From contig JAGGZI010000040.1 in NCBI GenBank assembly GCA_021162085.1, positions 1-60,248 of the forward strand: a stretch of DNA of 60,248 bases, written 5' to 3'. Under the pieces are notes generated by a model. The model did no database searches, was not told the DNA's origin, and saw only the letters and a program-made list of their open reading frames with translations. The position numbers and the translations under genes were made by a program. This document shows positions 37,949 to 58,584 of the stretch, piece after piece. The DNA is from Candidatus Aenigmatarchaeota archaeon (GTDB lineage: Archaea; Aenigmatarchaeota; Aenigmatarchaeia; PWEA01; JAGHBM01). Every line of letters begins with the position of its first letter. The stretch's first letter is position 1.

Positions 37949-38155
37949 TCATTCTGCAATGGAATTCTCTATATCACTAACCGTTATGTTGTTCACCGCC
38001 TCATCCAATTCCTGTTCTATGGCATTATCCGCCTGGTTTTCTAAGCTTGGTGCTGTTATCTGGGATTCTGCTGTTCCAGTTTTTCCCTGACTAACACATC
38101 CGCTTATGAATATCACTGAAATTAAGAGGCCTATAAGGGCAAACTCCTTTATCAT
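37949..38155 (-). CDS. Small acidic lipoprotein-like secreted protein
   Basis: LIGLLISVIFISGC lipobox-like N-terminus. 4-nt overlap with the upstream gene's stop. Confidence 0.4.
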   Translation of the reverse strand: MIKEFALIGLLISVIFISGCVSQGKTGTAESQITAPSLENQADNAIEQELDEAVNNITVSDIENSIAE

Positions 38156-39078
38156 CTTCTACCACCCAGTACATTACTTATTCCGCCAACGGTTGTGTTA
38201 GTTTCCATTGAACCGGTATTGATTTCTCTTATTCTGTTCCTGATGGCCTGCGCTCTCTCGAGCAATCTTGGATTGTTTATCACGGTTTGCTTTACTACTG
38301 CACATCCTGGGTTGTCTGGATGATTTTTGCAGAAGTTTACTATCTTATCTCCTATTCTTTTACATAGAATGGATTCTGAGTGAACCTCACAGTACTTCTT
38401 TGCCCTGTTGAGCTCGAATGGAACACAATACCTGTTAGTTGGATTGTTCTTGCACCAATTTGCGAATTCTTCTCTACATCTTATGTCCTTCATTTTTGTC
38501 TTCATACAGTATGCTCTGAACAATGCTCTGCACCTTGCATCTTCTGGATTGTTCTGACAGTAACTTGCAATCTTTTTGCAGTTCTGGTCTCCTGGATTTT
38601 CTTTACAATACTCTGAGACTTTATCTTTTAGCTCTGAAGGTCTTATTGGTCTGTTTCCTTCAATTATGTATGTGTTGTAGGTTTCACCATTCAGATTAAT
38701 TGTTCCTGCCCATACCTCTGTATCGCCCTTCATCACTGAAGACAAATCGAATGAGCCAGCTTCTGTTCCATTTGCATACATCTTTCCTGTGACTTCTCCA
38801 TCGTTCATTGATATGTTTCTTAGCCTATATCTTGTGTCATCAAGTAGAGCCACTCCCACTGAGAGCGTGTTGTTTCCTGCTACAACTTTCCCTATACCGA
38901 ACTTTATTATCATGAAGTTCATTGGATCGCTGGATGATGCTATTATACCTTTTCCAAGTACCATCAATGATTCTATCTTTACTCTTCCTTGGTTTGCTGG
39001 TGTATTTGTTGGACCCTGTGCCATTGCTGGGATTGCCAACAACGATAAGGTAATAAGTATTACCAATATCTTCTTCAT
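38152..39078 (-). CDS. Secreted protein with six tandem Cx8-9C units
   Basis: Signal peptide MKKILVILITLSLLAIPAMA. Cys pairs at 158/167, 174/183, 191/201, 209/218, 230/239 and 250/259, several as C-[KQ]-N-[NH]-P-x4-C. Confidence 0.6.
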   Translation of the reverse strand: MKKILVILITLSLLAIPAMAQGPTNTPANQGRVKIESLMVLGKGIIASSSDPMNFMIIKFGIGKVVAGNNTLSVGVALLDDTRYRLRNISMNDGEVTGKMYANGTEAGSFDLSSVMKGDTEVWAGTINLNGETYNTYIIEGNRPIRPSELKDKVSEYCKENPGDQNCKKIASYCQNNPEDARCRALFRAYCMKTKMKDIRCREEFANWCKNNPTNRYCVPFELNRAKKYCEVHSESILCKRIGDKIVNFCKNHPDNPGCAVVKQTVINNPRLLERAQAIRNRIREINTGSMETNTTVGGISNVLGGRR

Positions 39079-45928: not shown

Positions 45929-46255
45929 TTACTTATTTAATCCCATACAGCACATCGATTCTGCCTTCTCTAGTTTTTTTTGGTTGTTGGGAGGATTCCA
46001 TTTATAACCCAATGTACAGTTTATCGCATCCACAAGGTCTCCATAGTTGCTCATGTCGCTTGCTTTAATCTTATCATCGCATCCTCCGGCAGAAACGAAT
46101 TTCTGACACTCGGCACTGAGTTTTGCCTGACATTTCATGGTACTTGATGGTGTTCCAAATGCACCAACGAAGAAAGCCACAATTCCAAGGAGCACTATCA
46201 GTCCAACGGCAAGTATTATTATTGTATTTATCGGTATTGACATACCTTTTTTCAT
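45929..46255 (-). CDS. Pilin-like protein with class III signal peptide and 6-Cys C-domain (paralogue A)
   Basis: MKKG|MSIPINTIIILAVGLIVLLGIVAFFV, then MKCQAKLSAECQKFVSAGGCDD ... CC. Last gene of the pilus operon. Confidence 0.7.
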   Translation of the reverse strand: MKKGMSIPINTIIILAVGLIVLLGIVAFFVGAFGTPSSTMKCQAKLSAECQKFVSAGGCDDKIKASDMSNYGDLVDAINCTLGYKWNPPNNQKKLEKAESMCCMGLNK

Positions 46256-46265
46256 ATATTCACCT

Positions 46266-46556
46266 TTAGGTTGTGATTGTTGTTGAATTCTGACAACAAG
46301 TATCTCTTACATCTGCTTCACTTATTCCCATACATGATGCTGCATTTTTTAAAGAGTCTAAATCTCCTTTGTTTATGTCATCGCATCCACCAGCTGCAAC
46401 GTATTTGGCACATTCAGCATTCCACTTTGCCTGACATTTCATGGTGTTGCCACCCGGCGTTGCCGAACCCATGAATATGGCAAGAAGTGAGGCAAGCACA
46501 ATCAGCCCAATAACTAATATAATTATCGTATTTATCGACATTGATATTCCTTTCAT
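46266..46556 (-). CDS. Pilin-like protein with class III signal peptide and 6-Cys C-domain (paralogue B)
   Basis: MKG|ISMSINTIIILVIGLIVLASLLAIF, then MKCQAKWNAECAKYVAAGGCDD ... CC. Confidence 0.7.
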   Translation of the reverse strand: MKGISMSINTIIILVIGLIVLASLLAIFMGSATPGGNTMKCQAKWNAECAKYVAAGGCDDINKGDLDSLKNAASCMGISEADVRDTCCQNSTTITT

Positions 46557-46566
46557 TTTAAATCAC

Positions 46567-48912
46567 CTACTCCCATGGGTTTGAAACAACTACAGCTTTT
46601 ATCCAATCTATTTTCAAATTAAAACCATTACCATTCCAATAATTCGGGCATATATCTATTCTTTTCACTTTTCTACTGGTATCGAATCCATTAAAGGTGA
46701 TTTCTTCTGGATATGAAATTGAATTTACCGTATAGTAATCATGACCATTCATTAATACATTTCCAAGTCCAAGTTTACTGCAATCATCACCCACATAACA
46801 TACAAATGGATAAATATCAATATTCGGATTTGTAAAGCTGTCTGTCGCTGAGTATCTCATTTTCAATGAGTAGATGTACATTGGATTACTTTCTAAATCT
46901 ATTTTTATACATTGTGCAACAAAATAGTCTTTGAGACCAGCCGATGAGTAATAAGCGTTACACCTTCCAGTCTGGGTTGAAGAACCCTTCATATCAAGAC
47001 ATAGATAGTCACTATCTTGCCAATCGCTGCAATACCGCCGAATACAATTATCATCATTACAGTCCTGGTCAATTGTTATATCATTTTCACATGTTGTAGA
47101 TCGGCAGCCTCCTTTAATTTTTGTTATGTTTGGATTTAGACATATAGTTTTTAAGCATCCCTCATTTGTGCACAAGCCACTTACCTGTGAGCAGCTTGGG
47201 CAGAACTCACTTCTGATACAATAACAAGCACTCGAAGATGCATCACCACAACCAAAGTTATTTCCTGTTGTGTCAAAGTAAAATGGAAGTTGTTTATAAC
47301 TTATGCAAGTGTCTAAAATTGAAAGAGGACCAGCCACACATTGCGGATTTGGAGTAGTAATTGTGTTTCTGCATGCTCCATAAGAATTGGCATTTAAATG
47401 CTTACATGCAGCATCACAGGGATCTGCAGGCTTTTGTGCACATCCTGAGTTGTCGTTGTTACACCCATAAGCACATTGTTGAATTGGTCCGACAGATTCC
47501 ACACATCCATCTCCATTCGTATCCGCACAATTTAGTAAATATGCTTTACCATCCTCTCCTACATAGCATGTTGTGCCACCATTTTCAAGTCCATGTTGTA
47601 CACATATTTGTTCCGGTTGACATGGAGGTTTAGTTAAGCTCTCATTTGTTGTGAATTTGACCCAGGCAATTTTATGGTCTTTGCTATCACGTTTTGGACA
47701 AATATCTATCATATCCAATTTTTTGTCTACAAAGATATGGTTCAAAACATTGTATCCCTCAACATCTTCTGCAATGGTATGCCACCCATCACCATTGTTA
47801 TTACAACTTCCATCGTAACAACCAAAAACATAAAGGTCATTGTGTCCGTCATCAGAGCCAGACCTGAACCACAAATCTTTTACATATACAGATTTTCCAT
47901 AGAAATCTTTGAAATTTAATCGAAGACATTGGCCAGTTTCGATGTTAGACCTTTTACAATCTCCGGATTGATCTAAACATATTGTAATATCATTATTTAC
48001 ATTTTGGTATGGATCTGAGTATAAATAATATATTTTTAGCGGAATACTAGTACAATCCGAAGATATGCCATCACTTATTCTATCTTTTTGGCAACCAGTT
48101 GACGAAACACTACAACCAATTTTCTCCAATAAACTCTTGCCTGGAACTTTTTCAGAATTGGCACAGTATTCAGTAAAATTATTAATATTTCCATACTCTT
48201 TTTTACAATCTTCTTCCGTTTTATCTATTGGGCAACATACATTTAGATTTTTATTCCATTCCCAATCTTCCGGACAACAATAATAATATGTGAAATTTGT
48301 ATAAGTTTCTCCAAAAATCCCAGAATAGTGTGAAGAGATTTTATATTTAAAAAACAAATTTTGTCCACTGAAGTAATTATTTTCAACGGGAGATGATAAA
48401 GAATATATACAATTATGCACTCCTTTATATTCACACTTTGGTTGATCTTTCACGCTATTGGTGAAGTCTGGGGAAGTAGAGTCAAAACCTTTGTATATCT
48501 CCGTTTTAAGTGCTGAAGTTTCTCCATGAGACATACCAGTAAGAACTCTCCCCGAAGCTTGAGTATTTTTTATAATACAACTTCCTTCTCCTCCAGGAAC
48601 ATCACATCTCCACTTAGTCTCAATTTCATGAGATTTTTTTTCATTTTTATTGTCTACTTTTTGTTCTATAACTACAAAAGTATATTCCGGTGACGATTGA
48701 TCACTCAGGCAGGTTATTGAGGCTCCCTGATTCTCATTCTCACTTCCATTGAACATTTCCCACGCATTGCTTATGATGTCACTAACTGAACGAATTGGCT
48801 TAGCCTGGTGCATCATACCAAGACCAAACCCAAGGACGGCGAGGGCAAGGATTATGGTTACAACAACAATTATAACACTACTACCGACACCCTTACCATT
48901 TCCCATATTCAT
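46567..48912 (-). CDS. Giant Cys-rich pilin-like protein (781 aa), putative tip adhesin
   Basis: MNMGNGKG|VGSSVIIVVVTIILALAVLGFGL class III-like N-terminus. Roughly 70 Cys. Internal duplication of a ~110-135 aa module ending IDICP...W[VI]K[FA]. Confidence 0.7.
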   Translation of the reverse strand: MNMGNGKGVGSSVIIVVVTIILALAVLGFGLGMMHQAKPIRSVSDIISNAWEMFNGSENENQGASITCLSDQSSPEYTFVVIEQKVDNKNEKKSHEIETKWRCDVPGGEGSCIIKNTQASGRVLTGMSHGETSALKTEIYKGFDSTSPDFTNSVKDQPKCEYKGVHNCIYSLSSPVENNYFSGQNLFFKYKISSHYSGIFGETYTNFTYYYCCPEDWEWNKNLNVCCPIDKTEEDCKKEYGNINNFTEYCANSEKVPGKSLLEKIGCSVSSTGCQKDRISDGISSDCTSIPLKIYYLYSDPYQNVNNDITICLDQSGDCKRSNIETGQCLRLNFKDFYGKSVYVKDLWFRSGSDDGHNDLYVFGCYDGSCNNNGDGWHTIAEDVEGYNVLNHIFVDKKLDMIDICPKRDSKDHKIAWVKFTTNESLTKPPCQPEQICVQHGLENGGTTCYVGEDGKAYLLNCADTNGDGCVESVGPIQQCAYGCNNDNSGCAQKPADPCDAACKHLNANSYGACRNTITTPNPQCVAGPLSILDTCISYKQLPFYFDTTGNNFGCGDASSSACYCIRSEFCPSCSQVSGLCTNEGCLKTICLNPNITKIKGGCRSTTCENDITIDQDCNDDNCIRRYCSDWQDSDYLCLDMKGSSTQTGRCNAYYSSAGLKDYFVAQCIKIDLESNPMYIYSLKMRYSATDSFTNPNIDIYPFVCYVGDDCSKLGLGNVLMNGHDYYTVNSISYPEEITFNGFDTSRKVKRIDICPNYWNGNGFNLKIDWIKAVVVSNPWE

Positions 48913-48954: not shown

Positions 48955-50613
48955 TTATCCGGTCTGAACACAATACAATCTGTTTTTATTATTACATCCA
49001 CTTGAGATTATATCAACCCAGTTGAAACTATTCTCATTTGATAAACCAAGATGGCCAAAGTCCTCGTCGTCTCCTGTAGTCCATCCGTCTTTATCTGATG
49101 TCCAGTCTCTACAAGAATTATTTTCCTCATATTGCCCAGTTTTGTTGCTTCCTGTCCAAACATAATAACCATTCGCGATGAGATTACCATTTTCGTCATA
49201 ATTTATTGCATTTTCTATTGAGCCATCCCACAGGTCATCACAGTCCGTAGATATCACGTCTCCGTGAGTATTCTTTAAGTAACAGTTTGATATTCTATTC
49301 CTGGCATCTGTATTCGAGTCCGATAGGAGTGCTACGAACGTGCCACTTAATCCAGCATTACTTGCAAGTTCCTGACATTTCGCATCTGCTCCACTAAGCC
49401 CACCAAGCGAACCATTGTAAACTTCAGATGTCACGAAGATTATTCTATATGGGGTAACTATGCAACCATTCTCATTTTCACACTTGTCTATGCCACAGTT
49501 ACAGGATTGTTGATACTCACAATAGCAGCTTTGTCCAGACTGGCAGTTGGCTTTTTCTTTCTTCACCCAATAGTTGCATAAGCCACCTGAGCACGCATTG
49601 ACTGGATAATCAATATCACATTTTGAGTCAATGGCACTTTCACATACATTTTCTACTATCCTTGTGAAACTCATCGTATCCTCTATGCCAAATGTTAGAG
49701 CAAGTTTTTTCATGCCATCGGGAGTTGGAATTTTAGTGGATTTATCTATAACACTTACACTTATTACAAATGAAGCTTTGTAGTTGTTGAATCCCATATT
49801 CAATAAATTCATCTTCACCAGTTTTAGTTCCCATTCGATGTTATTATCATTTTTACCATTTGCTATTTCATTCAACTTGGATTGAATTTTGTTTTTAGCT
49901 TCATTTTCGGATAATGTTCCACCTTCAGAGCCGCAGACTTTGACATAATCTAATACATCCTTAAGTTCACTTTTCAAATCATTAATATTATTAACGAAGT
50001 TCTTAGCCTTGTCGTACAAAATGAAGTATTTTGTGGGAATGTCAGTTTCTATCTTTTCATTACCTTCGATTGTTTGATTTAATGATTCATCGCCTTGGTA
50101 TTTGTTGCTTGAGAATAAGTTTGCTTCATAACTTAGTTTTATTTTTGAATTTGTGTAGTCCATTTTTATTTTTGGTGTAGGATCATCGAGATATCTATTA
50201 ACTTTTACGTCAAGGTCAGAAGCGAAGTTATCAAACCATCCTTTATATGTTTCGTTTATTCTGCTACCAAGCTGGGAGGCAACATCATCCTTACTTGGAT
50301 AATTATCCTTTGACCAGCATACATATCCTTCGCATTTGCCCCATGTGTTGTATTCGGTAGAATCTTTATCCAATCCACCATTTAAGCCGTTCTCATACAG
50401 AGAGTTCACTCCGGACAACCAGAGAGCATTTCCTAAAAATTGTTTATCTGCATCATAGTGTGCCTGTGCTTCCATGAGTTTCCCTTCGTCAAGCATTATG
50501 GTGTATCCCACAGAATTCTTTGTGAGTTTAATAGATTCATACGAAATTACTCCACCAACAATTATTCCAGTGATTATTATTAGTGCAATCACGAGTCCAG
50601 CGATGCCCTTCAT
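48955..50613 (-). CDS. Pilin-like protein (552 aa) with C-terminal endostatin/C-type-lectin-like domain
   Basis: MKG|IAGLVIALIIITGIIVGGVISY N-terminus; Cys-knot-like middle. C-terminus: GSLGGLSGADAKCQELASNAGLSGTFVALLS ... VWTGSN ... CRDWTS ... RLYCV. Confidence 0.7.
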   Translation of the reverse strand: MKGIAGLVIALIIITGIIVGGVISYESIKLTKNSVGYTIMLDEGKLMEAQAHYDADKQFLGNALWLSGVNSLYENGLNGGLDKDSTEYNTWGKCEGYVCWSKDNYPSKDDVASQLGSRINETYKGWFDNFASDLDVKVNRYLDDPTPKIKMDYTNSKIKLSYEANLFSSNKYQGDESLNQTIEGNEKIETDIPTKYFILYDKAKNFVNNINDLKSELKDVLDYVKVCGSEGGTLSENEAKNKIQSKLNEIANGKNDNNIEWELKLVKMNLLNMGFNNYKASFVISVSVIDKSTKIPTPDGMKKLALTFGIEDTMSFTRIVENVCESAIDSKCDIDYPVNACSGGLCNYWVKKEKANCQSGQSCYCEYQQSCNCGIDKCENENGCIVTPYRIIFVTSEVYNGSLGGLSGADAKCQELASNAGLSGTFVALLSDSNTDARNRISNCYLKNTHGDVISTDCDDLWDGSIENAINYDENGNLIANGYYVWTGSNKTGQYEENNSCRDWTSDKDGWTTGDDEDFGHLGLSNENSFNWVDIISSGCNNKNRLYCVQTG

Positions 50614-51035
50614 TTGTAAAACCTCAACTGAATATTTTCATATCCACCTAGAACTGCAATCTTTCTGAAGGCGGTGTAGTGTTTCCCATTCAAATCTATG
50701 TTATTTGGGTTAAGTGTTTGGTCCTTAAACACCAACACGGCTTTGTAATTTCCAAACATATCGTTGAATTTGTTTTTGATAATTGTCTTTATGTTGTCAT
50801 CTCCTGTGATAAGGTATTCACTTATAAGATCTCTCATAGTAATTCCGTTGACCCTCATTCCAAGGAAAGAGTTAAATGTTAATTCTGGAAAAGTTGGTTC
50901 GGCTATCTCTTCTTTTATATCTGACTTGAATTCCAAGAGGTGATAAGAGTGTAGAACTGTCAGAAGCATAACTGCAAATATTATACCAATCGATATCATT
51001 GCAATGAAAAAACATGTGACAATTCCCTTTCTCAT
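50610..51035 (-). CDS. Pilin-like protein (141 aa)
   Basis: MRKG|IVTCFFIAMISIGIIFAVMLL. 4-nt overlap with the downstream gene. Confidence 0.6.
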   Translation of the reverse strand: MRKGIVTCFFIAMISIGIIFAVMLLTVLHSYHLLEFKSDIKEEIAEPTFPELTFNSFLGMRVNGITMRDLISEYLITGDDNIKTIIKNKFNDMFGNYKAVLVFKDQTLNPNNIDLNGKHYTAFRKIAVLGGYENIQLRFYK

Positions 51036-51046
51036 AAACTACACCA

Positions 51047-51583
51047 CTAAATGGGAGGTAACGATGTTGAACCTTTTGGTGGAAGCTTGTAATATGTCTT
51101 CAACTTGAGGATTGCAGGCTCGTCTCCACCATCAGACCTTATTAGAACAGGCAATGTGATCTGAATTCCAGGCTTTTTACCAAAGAGCCACAGGAATGGA
51201 AGTATCATGGATTGTTTTGGCTCATTCGTGAGGTCATAACTAAAGTCCCATTTGTCATTGGAGGAACTTATCGTTAAGTCAAAGTACGTCCTGTACATCT
51301 TTACACAATCTATGTCACCAGTTTGTTTCCTTTCATCCAGGAGAGTTTTATTCAAAATTCCCATTTCTCCTGTGCTGAAGCAATCCTTTGAAGTTAATAT
51401 CCTACTGAGCATGGACATCTGTACAATTTCTTGAGTCACTATGTCTGCTCCTTCCTCTTCCTGCTTGAGTATCCCAGCGAAGAATCCTATGGAAAAGGCG
51501 AGCGCAAAGACTAGCAAAATGAAGGCAAAAATACAAACAATCGTGTTTATTCCAAATCCTTTGTTAGAGATCACTCTTTCCAT
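51047..51583 (-). CDS. Pilin-like protein (178 aa)
   Basis: MERVISNKG|FGINTIVCIFAFILLVFALAF. Confidence 0.6.
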   Translation of the reverse strand: MERVISNKGFGINTIVCIFAFILLVFALAFSIGFFAGILKQEEEGADIVTQEIVQMSMLSRILTSKDCFSTGEMGILNKTLLDERKQTGDIDCVKMYRTYFDLTISSSNDKWDFSYDLTNEPKQSMILPFLWLFGKKPGIQITLPVLIRSDGGDEPAILKLKTYYKLPPKGSTSLPPI

Positions 51584-51993
51584 ATGGATATAACATCACC
51601 ATTTTTGTCTATATGAACTATCGTATTTCCATGGTTGCATTCTATGGTTGACGGCACCTCGATTTTTGTGTCGTTTAAGAAGTACATACCATATGTCATC
51701 TGATTTAGACCTTTGGTTGTGGTTTTTATGTACTTATTTGTTGAGTCAAGTGTCATAGTGCATGATAGGGCACCTATTTTAATTTTTGCTGTTTGGTTCT
51801 GCGGGCTTGAGGAAATTATGTTCATGATACCCACAACGCTCTGTGTTATTGATGTAGCCCTTGAGAGACCCAATATATTGCTTCCCCATCCGCCAACCTT
51901 AGCATACACAACACCAAAGAAAAATGCGATTATCACAGTTATCAAAAGCATCATCATAAGATTCATCATGGCTCCCTTTTTCATTTTCACCAA
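51571..51993 (-). CDS. Pilin-like protein (140 aa)
   Basis: MVKMKKG|AMMNLMMMLLITVIIAFFFGVVYA. Overlaps both neighbours. Confidence 0.6.
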   Translation of the reverse strand: MVKMKKGAMMNLMMMLLITVIIAFFFGVVYAKVGGWGSNILGLSRATSITQSVVGIMNIISSSPQNQTAKIKIGALSCTMTLDSTNKYIKTTTKGLNQMTYGMYFLNDTKIEVPSTIECNHGNTIVHIDKNGDVISIWKE

Positions 51994-52802
51994 CCCAGAC
52001 TATGGTGTTTTGAACAACTCCAGTCTTTGGACTTTTCCGGCCAATTTGTATCTACTGGTTCGGATGTTATACCAAACGGTCCTTCAAAAAGCCTAATAGT
52101 AGATTTAATTATAGTACCTCCTAAATCAACAGGATCATTGTTCCAGCAAAAGTTTTTATCCGATGTGAATCCATCCTTCTTACCAAGATTTCTTATCTTA
52201 CAAATTTTTATTTTGTCTTTAGTTTTGTCGTAGTAAACCTTAACCTCTGCTCCACATGGGCTTAAAAGCCAGAATGGTTCCACCTTACCTGATAGGTCCT
52301 TATCAAATTCCACTTTGTCGTTGTTGCTCATTTCAACCATTCCATAGCAGATTCCGTTAGGACATTTATCATAAACAACATGTTGAACATCTGTGAATGT
52401 TATTTCATAAAGTATGATTCCTATGCTACCTTTTTCTCCACCTTTCTCTCTGCTATGGTATATTATCCATTTTGGGTCGTTTCCATAACTGTAGTCACCA
52501 CCATGTACATAATATGTTATACCCTTTGTCAGTTGTTGTGGCATGGTTATGTTAACTTTTTCCTCGCAGTCCTCAGGGTGTCCGTTTGTCTTGCTCTCTT
52601 CCTCCTGAACGCACTGATAGACTCCTTTTATTGCATCTCCAAGCCTAAGAGCACTACCGGTTGTTGCGGCTCCCTCGGAGAGAACTTGATTGGCACCAAG
52701 GGCATGCCATATAACTACGAGGAGTACGAATCCAATTGCTACGGACAGGAAAATGGTCAACAAGTGTCCAACTTCAGTTCCCTTCACAAAATCACCCAAC
52801 AT
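51987..52802 (-). CDS. Pilin-like protein (271 aa)
   Basis: MLGDFVKG|TEVGHLLTIFLSVAIGFVLLVVIW. Several Cys in the globular part. Confidence 0.6.
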   Translation of the reverse strand: MLGDFVKGTEVGHLLTIFLSVAIGFVLLVVIWHALGANQVLSEGAATTGSALRLGDAIKGVYQCVQEEESKTNGHPEDCEEKVNITMPQQLTKGITYYVHGGDYSYGNDPKWIIYHSREKGGEKGSIGIILYEITFTDVQHVVYDKCPNGICYGMVEMSNNDKVEFDKDLSGKVEPFWLLSPCGAEVKVYYDKTKDKIKICKIRNLGKKDGFTSDKNFCWNNDPVDLGGTIIKSTIRLFEGPFGITSEPVDTNWPEKSKDWSCSKHHSLGW

Positions 52803-53613: not shown

Positions 53614-53733
53614 TCACAACCAGTTGCCAAAGAAGTTGTAAAACATACCAACAACCCCAAGCAATATTAAAAGGGCAATTGCAATGGCTATTACAACTTC
53701 CTTAAGTCCATATCCAACCAAACCTTTATGCAA
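53614..53733 (-). CDS. Possible mini-pilin-like protein (39 aa, TTG start, not in ORF track)
   Basis: Hand translation: (M)HKG|LVGYGLKEVVIAIAIALLILLGVVGMFYNFFGNWL. The TTG overlaps the FlaJ-like stop. Weakest member of the series. Confidence 0.3.
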   Translation of the reverse strand: MHKGLVGYGLKEVVIAIAIALLILLGVVGMFYNFFGNWL

Positions 53734-55798
53734 GTGAACCACCCGTCAGCAAATCTTCTATCATCGGTCCAAACATACTGTACGTTACGACCAAACTCAA
53801 TGTATATATTATTAAACCAATTAATAAACTCCACCCAACAAGGTCCCTTTCACTTATCTTGTCTCCTGGACCGTTCTCAACGCCATTTATGAGATAAGAA
53901 AGAAGATATATGACCTCTATCGTGTATATGCCTACAATAATCTGGAAGAATCCAAGTGGCATTATCTTTCCAACTCCTCCCCAACCTCCTATCATTGTTT
54001 GAGTAAATCCGGGAATCTTTGAGCTCTGGAGGTTTGTCATGCTTTCTCCAAGGGCCTTGAAAATCATCATCATTATTGCCGCCATGGTTATGGTCACACC
54101 GGATATCAATGGAGCAAGAAACATTGATAGGAATTTCATACTTGTTGTAACTTCTCCAAGCATCTCCTTGAGGTCCTCATTTATCTGATGAAGTTGTTTT
54201 ATGTAACGTGATATTGCCATGGCGCTCAACGCAGCGTTCTTAACTCCCTTCTTTGCTGCCTCAAATATTATTCTCATAACGTTCACGATAAGCTTTGATG
54301 GATAATCCCATACTGCTCCGAACTTCTTATCAAACAATGCTGCCTCAAGTGCCAATCCACCCTGCCTCATATTCCTTAAAGTCTTCTTGAACATCTGAGA
54401 TATTGTGAGGTCGGAAGTCTTTTCAACGGTTTGTTCCATGGCCTTCTCCATGGGATTACCAAGAGCCATCCTGCTGCCAAACTGGAAGAGTGCTTCTGAG
54501 AACTCGTCCTGAAGCTTCCTGACGTTGTCCCTTATCTTGGTTTTGGTTCCGCTGTCTATTATAAACACTGAGGATATACCAAGTCCAATTCCCCATGTTA
54601 TTATTAAGGAGTACATAAGATTTCCAAGGCTTATCTGGGATGCACTACCAAGGGTCAAGAGTGCCCCAGGTACTATCAGTGCCAATGATATGAATAGTCC
54701 AATTGGCCACAGGGAAATATCTTTTTTAACATTTCCAATGGTTATTTTTATTCTTCCAACGGGGCTGTACTTCGGGTGCATCGATATGTCAGGAGAGTAA
54801 TAGCTTACTGGTCTATAGGATAGAACTTTTTTGGTTATGGCAAATATGGTCAGTGGCAGGATTACATCATACATAACAATCAATAACAAGGGATCTATGG
54901 TTTCGCTCATCATCAGCATGACAACAGGCATCATAACAAGGAGAAGTATTGGTAGCATTATACCAAGGGCATATATTAACATGACTGGCATCCTCAGGGA
55001 TTGTGAGTAGTGTTTCATCCTTTCCTTTGTTCCCTCAAGTATTCTATTGACTGCCTCATCCAGCATGGCATTTCTTCTTGTTTCAGGTTGCTCCATGGAA
55101 GACCTTATGAGGTGCATCGACTCTATGAAATCTTCGTTACCCTTCCATTTATCCACATAATCCTCCACAGCATCGTAAATGTTTTCATACCTTCTTACAT
55201 CAACGTCCCATAGAATTTTCCTCAGGTCGTAGGCAAGTGGACCCGTGAGGTTTTGCGCGGCAAATTTTATTGCACCTTCCATGTTTGGGGAGGCTCTCAT
55301 GTATATTACCATGTACAGGACGGCAAGGATTATTTCCTGAGAAGCATTAACCCTAAATTGATTTGCTAGATACATTGGATATTTCATCAAACCATAGATC
55401 ACCAGAACTGAGAGTACGAACAACGATATGGTGAGGGTGAAGTTAACAGTGACGAACAGTACTATTACGGCAATGATCATTAAGAGAATACCCATGATAA
55501 TTGCAAGGGAGAATGCACCAACGGGCGTTATCTTCAAGTGGGCAAAGTCTATTGCCATTTGCATGTTCTTTCTCGTTTCCTTATCAGGCTCTATGTTCAA
55601 TGGCTCAAAAATCTTACATAATTTTTCATAAAGTGTTGTTTTTTCTCTCATCTCTTCTTCTTTGAAGGTTTGATATTCCTTGCTGTGGGGGTTTATTTCA
55701 AATTCTTCCGGTAACTCGATTGCTGGCATTGACTCATTCAGAATTCTCTTCAACTCTTCAATCCTAGCTTTTCTAAGGTCTTTGGGGGGTTTTGCCAT
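53726..55798 (-). CDS. FlaJ/TadC-type (T2SS-F-like) polytopic platform protein
   Basis: 690 aa. Two cytoplasmic helical domains alternate with clusters of TM helices. Located directly downstream of the secretion ATPase. Confidence 0.8.
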   Translation of the reverse strand: MAKPPKDLRKARIEELKRILNESMPAIELPEEFEINPHSKEYQTFKEEEMREKTTLYEKLCKIFEPLNIEPDKETRKNMQMAIDFAHLKITPVGAFSLAIIMGILLMIIAVIVLFVTVNFTLTISLFVLSVLVIYGLMKYPMYLANQFRVNASQEIILAVLYMVIYMRASPNMEGAIKFAAQNLTGPLAYDLRKILWDVDVRRYENIYDAVEDYVDKWKGNEDFIESMHLIRSSMEQPETRRNAMLDEAVNRILEGTKERMKHYSQSLRMPVMLIYALGIMLPILLLVMMPVVMLMMSETIDPLLLIVMYDVILPLTIFAITKKVLSYRPVSYYSPDISMHPKYSPVGRIKITIGNVKKDISLWPIGLFISLALIVPGALLTLGSASQISLGNLMYSLIITWGIGLGISSVFIIDSGTKTKIRDNVRKLQDEFSEALFQFGSRMALGNPMEKAMEQTVEKTSDLTISQMFKKTLRNMRQGGLALEAALFDKKFGAVWDYPSKLIVNVMRIIFEAAKKGVKNAALSAMAISRYIKQLHQINEDLKEMLGEVTTSMKFLSMFLAPLISGVTITMAAIMMMIFKALGESMTNLQSSKIPGFTQTMIGGWGGVGKIMPLGFFQIIVGIYTIEVIYLLSYLINGVENGPGDKISERDLVGWSLLIGLIIYTLSLVVTYSMFGPMIEDLLTGGSLA

Positions 55799-56310: not shown

Positions 56311-58584
56311 TTATATATGAGTTGTCTGAGTTTTCTTCCATTTTTTTATCTGTTCCTTCATCCAGTCATCCCACATCTTGTATGCCCTTTCCGGTGGTAT
56401 CGAGCCCACCTCTTCCCTTAGCTCCTCAGAGATTAAATGAAACTTCTCGTTTGATAACACCACAAATGGGGCTTCCATGAGTTCTTTTATTCCCGTGTTC
56501 AGGGCATAGTTTGTTATGGCCTGTTTTATTTTTCCTCTGAGGTTTATGTTGTCCCATACTGCTGACCAGTTGCCTGACCATTCTCTTATGTTAGATGCTA
56601 TTTCATTCAATATAACACTTTCCCCGTTTAGAAGTGTGGATGTTGGCTTTAGAGTATCCTCCTTTGCCGAATATTCCATAAGGTTCACGAAGCCTCCCTC
56701 TTCAACGGGGTCTTTCCTCCAGTGCTTTCTTACTTCCGTTACGGTTGTTACCCTCCTGAATCTATGAAGTCCATCTGCTGACTTGAGTATGTTGCATATT
56801 ATCACAAGGTCGGTTGCCTTGAAGGATGTTACTGGAACTCCCAGGTCATTTACAACACGGTCAAATATACCATAAGCACTTTCCCCGTGAATTGTCCCAG
56901 CAACTGTGTTTGCAAGAGCACCAATTCTCATTGCCTCGTAAAGTGCCTTTGCCTCTGTGGACCTGACCTCACCAAGTATTAGACAGGAATCTCCAAGTCT
57001 TAGGGCAGTTCTTATGGCTTCCTCGGTTGGCATCTCAGTTTCCACCTGTGTTATCACGGAACGGGATTTTAATCTCTCTATGTTGAATCCAAGTTCTCTC
57101 ATCCTCTTGACACTCAGTTCAAGTGTATCCTCAACGGTGACTATTCTATATTTCTTCATTATCTCAAGCATTGACGCATTTAGGAGTGAGGTTTTTCCTG
57201 ATGATCTGGTCCCGCCAATGAGGAATGTTCTTGAACCATCGATTACAAAGGACATCAGCCCTGCAAATAGTGGATTAAAGAATCTTATATCTGGCTTAAG
57301 GTAAAGTGGGTAAGTCCATGGATCATCTCTGTGCCTCCTTATTGAGAATCCAAATCCATCAGGAGATAGGGATCTCGTTATCACGGTTATTCTTGCCCTT
57401 CCCCCGGGCACCATAGCCTCCGTGTCAAGCACCGGATTTGCCTCATCCAGTGGTCTACCAGACATCATCCTGAATCTTGTTACCCAATATTCGGCATCCT
57501 CATGAGTTGGTATCAGATTGGTTTCACACTCCTGGTAATCCTGATGAAATATGTATATGGGTATCTCCCCAATTGGAGAATTTATGTATATGTCTTGAAT
57601 CTTTTTGTCTGCGAGCAGAACCTCAAGTATTCCAAGTCCCCCGGTATATCTTGTCAGTATCTCGGTAAGTTCTTCCACGTCCTGAGTCGAAAGCCTGATT
57701 CCCATCTGATCAGATAAGTCTGTTATGAGGTCTCTTCCTATGTTAGAAAATACTTCCCTCATTTTTTCTGGCTCGGTGAATTCTAAGGCTCTCGGCTTAT
57801 GTTCGGTTAGATATCTCCTTGCGGCATCTAAAATTGTGTATTTGTCCTCACCCAATCTGAACTCAGGGGGAACAACATGGTATACATATCTAACGGAGTT
57901 TGGTACTTTGTATATCTCTACCTCCACATCACCACCAATCTTATACCTATCTATTATCTCTCCGCCCCTTGGTGGCTGGGTCATGTACTTAGTTAACATG
58001 AAGTTTGGTCTAGTTGTGGGGTGGAATATCTCCCTGTATACGCCTCTATCGCCAATTTTATATTTGGACATGAATGGTTTTGCCTTCTTTATCAGATCAA
58101 GATTCTCTAATGTAGTTATGGTTGGAATCAATACGTTATCAAGTAGTTTCTGATAACATATTTGAGTTCTTCCCGTAACGGACTCTATTTTTATCCTAGT
58201 ATGCCTTATCAATCTCTTTATTTTTTCGTAGGCGGCAATCGGGTCGGACCTCAGATCGCTGAGCACGATACTTTGAAATTTAGAAAAAACTTCGCCCGTA
58301 TAGCCCATGCACTCTCTTCCAGCCCTTAAAGGGCTTATCAACTTCTTCGTTTTTATTATCTCATTTATTGCAGAGGCAAGTTGCGCAAGCATTTTAGTTT
58401 GTTCAAACGGGTATTCGTATTCCCTATTTTTAGCGAGAACTATGCTCTTGACGTTCTTGGTCTCTATAAGCTTGTCAATCGTTCGTGCCATACAGGCAGG
58501 ATAATCCTCTATACTGGAACCATATATACAACCAAGGCAATTAACCCTCATTGTTCCGTCCTTCATCTCATACTCGCAGACCAT
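56311..58584 (-). CDS. Type II/IV secretion-family ATPase (FlaI/PilB/VirB11-like) with long N-terminal extension
   Basis: Walker A IGGTRSSGKTSLLNA, Asp box VTVEDTLEL, Walker B CLILGEVRSTEA, His-box-like GTIHGES. The N-terminal ~300 aa include C3/C16/C19/C31. Confidence 0.9.
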   Translation of the reverse strand: MVCEYEMKDGTMRVNCLGCIYGSSIEDYPACMARTIDKLIETKNVKSIVLAKNREYEYPFEQTKMLAQLASAINEIIKTKKLISPLRAGRECMGYTGEVFSKFQSIVLSDLRSDPIAAYEKIKRLIRHTRIKIESVTGRTQICYQKLLDNVLIPTITTLENLDLIKKAKPFMSKYKIGDRGVYREIFHPTTRPNFMLTKYMTQPPRGGEIIDRYKIGGDVEVEIYKVPNSVRYVYHVVPPEFRLGEDKYTILDAARRYLTEHKPRALEFTEPEKMREVFSNIGRDLITDLSDQMGIRLSTQDVEELTEILTRYTGGLGILEVLLADKKIQDIYINSPIGEIPIYIFHQDYQECETNLIPTHEDAEYWVTRFRMMSGRPLDEANPVLDTEAMVPGGRARITVITRSLSPDGFGFSIRRHRDDPWTYPLYLKPDIRFFNPLFAGLMSFVIDGSRTFLIGGTRSSGKTSLLNASMLEIMKKYRIVTVEDTLELSVKRMRELGFNIERLKSRSVITQVETEMPTEEAIRTALRLGDSCLILGEVRSTEAKALYEAMRIGALANTVAGTIHGESAYGIFDRVVNDLGVPVTSFKATDLVIICNILKSADGLHRFRRVTTVTEVRKHWRKDPVEEGGFVNLMEYSAKEDTLKPTSTLLNGESVILNEIASNIREWSGNWSAVWDNINLRGKIKQAITNYALNTGIKELMEAPFVVLSNEKFHLISEELREEVGSIPPERAYKMWDDWMKEQIKKWKKTQTTHI

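Follow-up and report, generated by a model that had tools for sequence, protein, structure and literature searches.

A cysteine-rich, pilin-like protein with a duplicated, predicted lectin-like module in a pilus-type operon of an Aenigmatarchaeota archaeon

The stretch of DNA analysed here (60,248 nucleotides, hereafter the window; contig JAGGZI010000040.1 of assembly GCA_021162085.1, Candidatus Aenigmatarchaeota archaeon) carries at 46567..48912 on the minus strand an open reading frame (ORF) with an ATG start that encodes P0001, a cysteine-rich, pilin-like modular protein of 781 residues, 52 of them cysteines. New in this protein is a profile-invisible module family restricted to the Aenigmatarchaeota, which occurs twice in P0001. 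Each of the two copies follows a Cys-knot prefix, and their carrier is pilin-like. A preliminary description of the same DNA, made from the letters alone, had suggested a multivalent adhesin displayed on a filament. Our own reading, which we hold with slightly more confidence than doubt, is that P0001 is a bivalent, disulfide-stapled modular type IV pilin-like adhesin, for which we infer both the display on a pilus and the ligand.

Results

A prepilin-type start precedes an even set of cysteines

The first 33 residues of P0001 (MNMGNGKG|VGSSVIIVVVTIILALAVLGFGLGMM; 48814..48912, minus strand, as are all features of the locus given below) comprise a class III (prepilin-type) signal and a hydrophobic N-terminal helix, in line with the GKG motif and hydrophobic N-terminus noted in the preliminary description. 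A class III signal has a short, charged leader that ends in K/R-G/A/S and runs into ~20 hydrophobic residues, a pattern that the start of P0001 follows, and residues 11-32 form a helix in the AlphaFold2 model of the full-length protein. In alignment, this type of start is also kept in the orthologues P0002 and P0003, and a rule-based scan of the genome for prepilin-type starts picks P0001 plus its seven neighbours. A Shine-Dalgarno-like GTGAT motif lies 7 nt 5' of the ATG, and a 42-nt gap separates the gene from the preceding one.

All 52 cysteines are located after the N-terminal hydrophobic helix, within ~745 residues. They make up 6.7% of the protein, compared with a genome-wide ORF median of 0.78% and a 99th percentile of 6.1% (a background taken from a crude ORF set that serves for cysteine comparison only); the figure of ~70 cysteines given earlier was too high, while the cysteine-rich strings quoted with it, YYYCCPEDWEWNKNLNVCCP (residues 209-228) and CAYGCNNDNSGCAQKPADPCDAAC (residues 480-503), are present. 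The number of cysteines is even in each domain (14 up to residue 300, 6 in module 1, 8 in residues 427-495, 18 in residues 496-637 and 6 in module 2), and an even total is found in 18 of 19 family sequences. The stretch between the two module copies, residues 427-637, holds 26 of the 52, which agrees with the proposal of a disulfide-knotted spacer. Both orthologues keep 26 of the 29 cysteines of residues 1-500 despite only 46-50% overall identity; judged by these alignments, the cysteine framework is retained while surfaces change between orthologues.

The six-cysteine module is duplicated within P0001

Two related segments had been placed at residues 312-420 (nt 47653-47979) and 638-773 (nt 46594-47001), positions that proved correct, and their relationship was put to a significance test. 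BLASTP of residues 312-420 against residues 638-781 gives E = 2e-5 with 25% identity over 111 columns. The two segments have a Smith-Waterman score of 82 (z = 9.5), which not one of 2000 shuffles attains (30.1 +/- 5.5), and hhalign relates a module-1 profile to a module-2 profile, both built from relatives, with a probability of 98.8% and E = 9.2e-17. Self-BLAST of the whole protein lists only the diagonal, so that segment-wise tests were required to show the duplication. Both copies start with CLD, contain QCLRLN or QCIKID and YVFGCYDGSC or YPFVCYVGDDC, and end with MIDICP...KIAWVKF or RIDICP...KIDWIKA; the shared motifs thus stand as described, save that one residue, not two, lies between G and C in the first copy.

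Six cysteines are matched between the copies (312/638, 319/651, 329/668, 365/705, 370/711 and 405/755), and four of the six are invariant in an alignment of 11 module copies. One paralogue has lost both Cys365 and Cys370, the joint loss to be expected if the two form a disulfide. Across the family, every sandwich follows a short Cys-knot prefix (CAN..EK..C.C..C..D....DC) in which the C, K, C and D-C columns are invariant. Within P0001, the similarity between prefix 1 and prefix 2 is insignificant (z = 0.5), and the larger repeat unit of prefix plus sandwich is therefore drawn from family-level alignments only. The two-module layout is also seen in P0003, P0006 and P0008. In a tree of the modules, the C-terminal copies of P0001, P0006 and P0008 group together with modest support (86/72), and the duplication is therefore probably older than these three lineages, as far as the sequences tell.

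The module is predicted to adopt a galactose-binding-type fold

The AlphaFold2 model computed on the 11-copy module alignment is all-beta, with a mean predicted local distance difference test score (pLDDT) of 85.4 and a predicted template modelling score (pTM) of 0.81. When this model was compared with the PDB using Foldseek, nearly all of the top 50 matches fell into the galactose-binding-domain-like superfamily, with template modelling (TM) scores of 0.4-0.58, and the best of them reached E 2.5e-3 and TM 0.5-0.58 at 10-16% identity. The matches include CBM32 (4a42, 4a6o, 2w1u, 2v72), chitosan-binding modules, CBM6 and CBM62, and further the discoidin domains of DDR2, CASPR2 and neuropilin b1 and the N-domain of galactose oxidase. 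The model and these matches bear out the guess of a jelly-roll or discoidin-like module. The full-length AlphaFold2 model is poor (mean pLDDT 51.6, with residues 320-490 at 65-87); in it both copies match CBM32, F-lectin and galactose-oxidase N-domains plus reelin repeats, the whole-chain Foldseek TM of ~0.1 being meaningful for the two sandwiches only.

Profile searches were silent, in agreement with the earlier statement that no family could be recognised. Pfam and NCBIfam returned no family for the whole of P0001, a PDB profile search came back empty, and Pfam on the 11 module copies gave only scattered single matches at E >= 0.01 (Prion, TerD and others), which we take as chance. We regard the module fold as a confident prediction of superfamily-level resemblance and not of family membership. 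The best PDB sequence match of P0001, the fungal effector Six6 (E 0.005, residues 419-476), was judged to be a cysteine-driven chance match, and an enzyme reading, in which P0001 would be a glycosidase carrying carbohydrate-binding modules, was rejected as there is no catalytic domain of any kind.

Elsewhere in the genome, three other genes, for large proteins, match PF00754 (F5_F8_type_C), namely G000:C1:8510-8731, C1:13743-13961 and C11:16751-17059, one of them above the cut-off, and one of the matching proteins (731 residues, 38 Cys) has a first 40 residues that look signal-peptide-like by eye. These sequences suggest that the pilus operon is not the only place in which the organism encodes lectin-type surface proteins.

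Domain layout of P0001

Behind the N-terminal helix lies 'domain A' (residues ~60-230; 48223..48735), which ends in a YYYCCPEDWEWN...CCP motif, is common to P0002-P0005 and is modelled with a confidence below 50. It is followed by Cys-knot prefix 1 (residues 244-305; 47998..48183; F.EYCAN...LLEKxxC...C...DC), kept in all full-length relatives, and by module 1 (residues 306-426; 47635..47997), the six-Cys beta-sandwich with the predicted CBM32/discoidin-like fold. A small, beta-rich domain with eight cysteines (residues 427-495; 47428..47634; pLDDT 59-78 in the full-length model) is kept in P0002, P0006, P0008 and P0009. Next comes a variable Cys-rich spacer (residues 496-585; 47158..47427; pLDDT 21-28) that is unalignable to orthologues, then Cys-knot prefix 2 (residues 586-630; 47023..47157; CLKTICLNPNITKIKGGCRSTTCENDITIDQDC...), which aligns with the prefixes of other units, and finally the C-terminal module 2 (residues 631-781; 46570..47022), a diverged second six-Cys beta-sandwich identified by the duplication tests, with the same strand pattern as module 1 in the full-length model.

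This C-terminal unit has its counterpart in the distant two-module relative P0006, where residues 558-753 align with residues 589-775 of P0001 at E 5e-13. Between its two sandwiches P0006 carries a right-handed beta-helix (residues 385-521; Pfam NosD, 25.3 bits, above the cut-off), which occupies the position of the unalignable Cys-rich spacer of P0001. In P0008 (= L004:1923-4160), a NosD-like beta-helix between the sandwiches was seen by eye only, with no Pfam match.

P0001 is encoded in a pilus-type operon

The operon runs in the order secretion ATPase, 114-residue protein, platform protein, four mid-size pilin-like proteins, 552-residue protein, P0001 and two small six-Cys pilins. The ATPase (757 residues; 56311..58584) is of the FlaI/TadA/VirB11 type, matching PF00437 at E 3.6e-15 and NCBIfam FlaI at E 1.5e-36, the latter below the cut-off; against the BasE model of NCBIfam it scores 51 bits, where the cut-off is 1000. 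Separated from it by the gene for the 114-residue protein is that of a FlaJ/TadC-type platform protein (690 residues; 53726..55798; PF00482 T2SSF at E 2.2e-4, sub-threshold). The four mid-size pilin-like genes (271, 140, 178 and 141 residues; 50610..52802) have K/R-G hydrophobic starts by sequence, and directly 3' of P0001 lie the genes for small six-Cys pilins of 96 and 108 residues (45929..46556), which by sequence are candidate filament subunits. Including P0001, eight consecutive genes of the locus start with K/R-G and a hydrophobic stretch. Downstream on the same strand lie the genes for Alba, proteasome alpha, SBDS, Rrp4, Rrp41, Rrp42 and prefoldin beta, housekeeping genes that mark the organism as archaeal.

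The 552-residue protein (48955..50613) is a second large modular protein of the operon, pilin-like and with an endostatin/DUF1554-like C-terminus that falls slightly short of the Pfam cut-offs (E 8e-7 and 1e-5). Its end varies, being beta-gamma-crystallin-like by eye in relatives (L004:9-1832; L005:1-792; L008:986-1798), and a precomputed match to PF08964 exists for the related P0014. These sequences make the end of the 552-residue protein look like another exchangeable head encoded by this operon.

The assembly (0.79 Mb, 87.5% complete) contains a Peptidase_A24 (prepilin peptidase) gene, above the cut-off, on another contig (G000:C36), and at least four T2SSE-type ATPase genes (contigs C25, C51, C23 and C39), among which the ATPase of the pilus locus is the most divergent. 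More prepilin-type genes are found on contigs C48, C51 and C53. For a genome of only 0.79 Mb, it is notable to have several type IV filament systems. At 38152-39078 the window also encodes a 308-residue protein that has a signal-peptide-like N-terminus by eye and a run of paired cysteines (C-x8-9-C units), which may be read as another sign of systematically disulfide-rich extracellular proteins in this archaeon. An Rfam search of the window gave no match, and a scan for sigma-70 promoters and terminators, uninformative for an archaeon, counted 17 sites where 14.5 were expected and 0 terminators.

The module family is small and confined to the Aenigmatarchaeota

Searched exhaustively with phmmer, 1.84 billion representatives yielded 10 proteins only. 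Word-seeded searches add few more, which brings the module family to ~15 proteins, found only in Aenigmatarchaeota and annotated at most as hypothetical. The module was found in 4 of 41 close relatives and, in a phylum-wide sample of 301 genomes, in 5; these are spread over four families of one class. Within the same family and order, most genomes are without it.

The gene order around P0001 recurs in L001, L002, L004/L014, L005 and L009. In locus L001, from a congener, the whole operon is collinear, and L002 is collinear to the contig end. In L004, L014 and G003, three tandem module-bearing prepilin-type genes lie between a 609-residue pilin-like protein and two small Cys pilins, and L005 has additional module-bearing paralogues. 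Small six-Cys pilins are encoded 3' of the homologues in L001, L002, L004, L005, L009 and L014, and the position of P0001 between prepilin-type genes is kept in every sufficiently long family contig. In G009, a 267-residue version with the module adjoins another pilin-like gene, and in G230, from another family, a TadC-containing locus encodes a 314-residue protein that has a prepilin-type start and, at its end, prefix plus module. The preliminary description had asked if homologues always sit in type IV pilus operons: they usually do, the exception being G135:C1 (L024:10263-12200), where prefix plus module ends a 645-residue polytopic protein with ~4 N-terminal transmembrane segments, encoded among housekeeping genes (thermosome, helicase). 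Considering this G135 carrier, the sequences indicate that the module is a portable extracellular domain.

The order of domains is also subject to change. A 458-residue paralogue (L004:4176-5552, also L014:2565-3941) has the reversed arrangement of prepilin start, prefix plus module and then 'domain A', and its comparison with P0001 yields two collinear high-scoring segment pairs (E 1e-4 and 5e-3); the reversal is evidence for shuffling of the domains as independent units. Taken over the family, the module is seen alone, doubled, swapped with 'domain A' or on a non-pilin carrier, and so behaves as the independent C-terminal module by which a modular pilin is recognised.

One module-bearing pilin paralogue, L005:2216-3640 (JGI 3300017593), is split by an inversion of ~850 bp. 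Its 5' part is on the plus strand (ending ...KFNGNPINS), its middle on the minus strand (MFRVDADS...DWKMRVYG) and its tail again on the plus strand (LYGRYCCPKDMYWDNEKKECADIPPT*). At the junctions there is only an imperfect inverted repeat of 12-13 nt, TCCCATAAACTC / GAGTTGTATGGGA. The split could be a real inversion, giving a pseudogene or a switch, or an assembly chimera.

The distal half of P0001 diverges rapidly between congeners

Comparing 18 genes of the window with the congener locus L001, we observed 70-90% identity for the housekeeping genes, 84% for the ATPase and 76% for the platform protein, and 52-69% for the mid-size pilin-like proteins and 59% for the small Cys pilins. P0001 (46%, over residues 22-426 only) and its 552-residue neighbour (40%, over the N-terminal 389 residues only) are among the most diverged of the 18, with only the 114-residue protein lower (32%). 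The C-terminal halves align poorly: module 2 is ~26% identical, the spacer is unalignable, and P0002 is without module 2. On this comparison of sequences, change in the distal half of P0001 is rapid and modular.

Discussion

The operon and its conservation in relatives fit an adhesin that is handled by pilus machinery and lend support to the multivalent adhesin on a filament proposed in the preliminary description, to which we give a little more credence than not. In the mechanism we envisage, the A24 prepilin peptidase would cut P0001 after Gly8, and the hydrophobic helix would then dock into the filament assembled by its locus. Its bulk and the analogy with Streptococcus sanguinis PilB and PilC (PMC9934059) suggest that P0001 would probably be located at the filament tip or within a priming complex, where its partners would be the 552-residue neighbour and the four mid-size pilin-like proteins. 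With its two lectin-like sandwiches on a disulfide-rigid stalk, P0001 would attach bivalently to a ligand on a surface, for which a glycan of the host-cell S-layer or envelope, or of matrix, is the likeliest candidate, and the fast-diverging, partly exchanged C-terminal half would tune what P0001 binds. Candidates for the filament shaft are the two small six-Cys pilins or helix-only mini-ORFs upstream, the latter of which would resemble Epd/Flp-type pilins (PMC13705601).

Several observations weigh against this reading. The 'pilin globular' part of P0001 (residues 29-207) has a pLDDT below 50 in the full-length model, and the fold likeness of the module is distant (TM 0.5-0.58, E >= 2.5e-3); in a search of the whole genome with PF00754 at E <= 10, the three other genes mentioned above were matched and the P0001 modules were missed. 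The module carrier of G135 lies outside any pilus locus, so that the module alone does not imply a pilus. A VKOR-type disulfide oxidoreductase was not found in the 87.5%-complete genome. Finally, archaea also have surface proteins that bear class III signal peptides and are not part of a pilus, for example in the Sulfolobus bindosome.

These signals on non-pilus proteins, the weak model of the putative pilin globular region and the G135 polytopic membrane protein would also suit a cell-surface anchored adhesin or a bindosome-like assembly, in which the helix serves as membrane anchor or short pseudopilus and the modules act at the envelope; the size of mature P0001 (~770 residues, next to pilin-like proteins of 96-271 residues in the operon) points the same way. 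We nevertheless consider such an anchor doubtful, given that the position of P0001 inside the pilus-type operon is strictly kept in every sufficiently long family contig, that Pfam and NCBIfam searches detected no solute- or substrate-binding-protein domain in P0001, and that bacterial pilus tips accommodate bulky modular pilins (PMC9934059).

A different question is what the sandwiches bind. With the architecture unchanged, their ligand might be a host surface protein or a membrane lipid in place of a glycan: the galactose-binding-like fold is functionally promiscuous, some discoidin/F5-8C domains bind collagen or phospholipid, and DPANN archaea get lipids from their hosts. Among the Foldseek matches are the DDR2 discoidin domain with collagen, neuropilin b1 with peptide and coagulation factor V (8tn9). 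However, the best and most numerous matches are carbohydrate-binding modules (CBM32, CBM6, CBM62 and F-lectins), and the 552-residue neighbour also has a lectin-type (endostatin/DUF1554-like) end, which makes a non-glycan ligand unlikely in our view. We rate as highly improbable a purely structural or assembly role of P0001, in which it would belong to a priming or cap complex or to an envelope-spanning collar and the sandwiches would be subunit contacts. The four co-encoded mid-size pilin-like proteins do resemble a minor-pilin set; a core part should, however, be conserved, yet the C-terminal half of P0001 is nearly unalignable between congeners, module 2 is missing from P0002, and in the same family and order the majority of genomes manage without the module.

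From bacteria, modular type IV pilins that carry lectin modules are known; S. sanguinis has PilC, with a ConA-like lectin, and PilB, with a vWA module (PMC9934059). P0001 shares with these a class III signal and helix followed by bulky binding-type modules, a gene among minor pilins in a type IV pilus operon and, by analogy, the proposed tip location and glycan adhesion. It differs in having no sequence relationship to them, in being archaeal, in carrying two CBM32-like sandwiches and not one ConA-like domain, and in its framework of 52 cysteines, and P0001 is known here from sequence and models. Its module resembles the CBM32/F5-8C domains of Clostridium perfringens GH89 and NagH (PDB 4a42, 4a6o, 2w1u) as a predicted beta-sandwich of ~120 residues (Foldseek probability ~1.0), and CBM32s are typically appended binding modules, often in tandem. 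Unlike CBM32s, the P0001 module has six conserved cysteines and an obligatory Cys-knot prefix, with an identity of 10-15% and a sequence to which PF00754 is blind. The sandwich-Cys module-sandwich layout of P0001 recalls the reelin repeat (PDB 2e26), in which two jelly-roll subrepeats flank a Cys-rich EGF module and which gives the best whole-chain Foldseek matches; this is an analogy of layout only, with a TM of ~0.11 on the low-confidence full-length model, and implies no relationship.

Closer in lineage are archaeal class III signal proteins, one of which has a galactose-binding domain and is encoded in an Epd locus, conserved cysteines being present in some systems (PMC13705601, PMC4858521, the second of which also discusses the bindosome). 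Like the Epd-locus protein, P0001 is archaeal and combines a prepilin-type signal, a type IV filament locus and a galactose-binding-type domain with predicted adhesion; unlike it, P0001 is from a DPANN archaeon, has a single-gene platform protein, a duplicated, profile-invisible module and a Cys-rich stalk, the two being compared by description and not by homology. In episymbiotic Saccharibacteria, the lectin-like minor pilins PilX1 and PilX2 are proposed to recognise host cell-wall glycans, with genetic evidence for host binding (PMC11623550). P0001 likewise comes from an ultrasmall, probably host-dependent organism and likewise has lectin-like C-terminal domains on a pilin-type protein, whereas PilX1 and PilX2 are bacterial, have L-type and PLL-type lectin folds and are backed by that genetic evidence, binding by P0001 being predicted only. 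As modular pilins with lectin modules were already known in bacteria, and class III signal proteins with galactose-binding domains in archaea (PMC13705601), the conceptual step taken here is modest.

The organism, a tiny member of the Aenigmatarchaeota, is probably symbiotic. A more far-reaching and, in our estimate, improbable proposal is that P0001 determines host specificity, acting as a bivalent lectin at a type IV pilus tip that recognises S-layer glycans of a host archaeon, with a C-terminal head (spacer plus module 2) that would be exchanged or rapidly diversified among congeners as a means of changing or following hosts. If this were true, the inverted paralogue in L005 would hint at on/off switching of heads. 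In the literature searched we found no characterised attachment factor of any Aenigmatarchaeota member. The sequence family of a Cys-knot prefix and a six-Cys sandwich, with its ~15 members, has been missed by current profile libraries. For the study of how DPANN archaea find their hosts and stay attached to them, the P0001 locus provides a concrete, clonable candidate.

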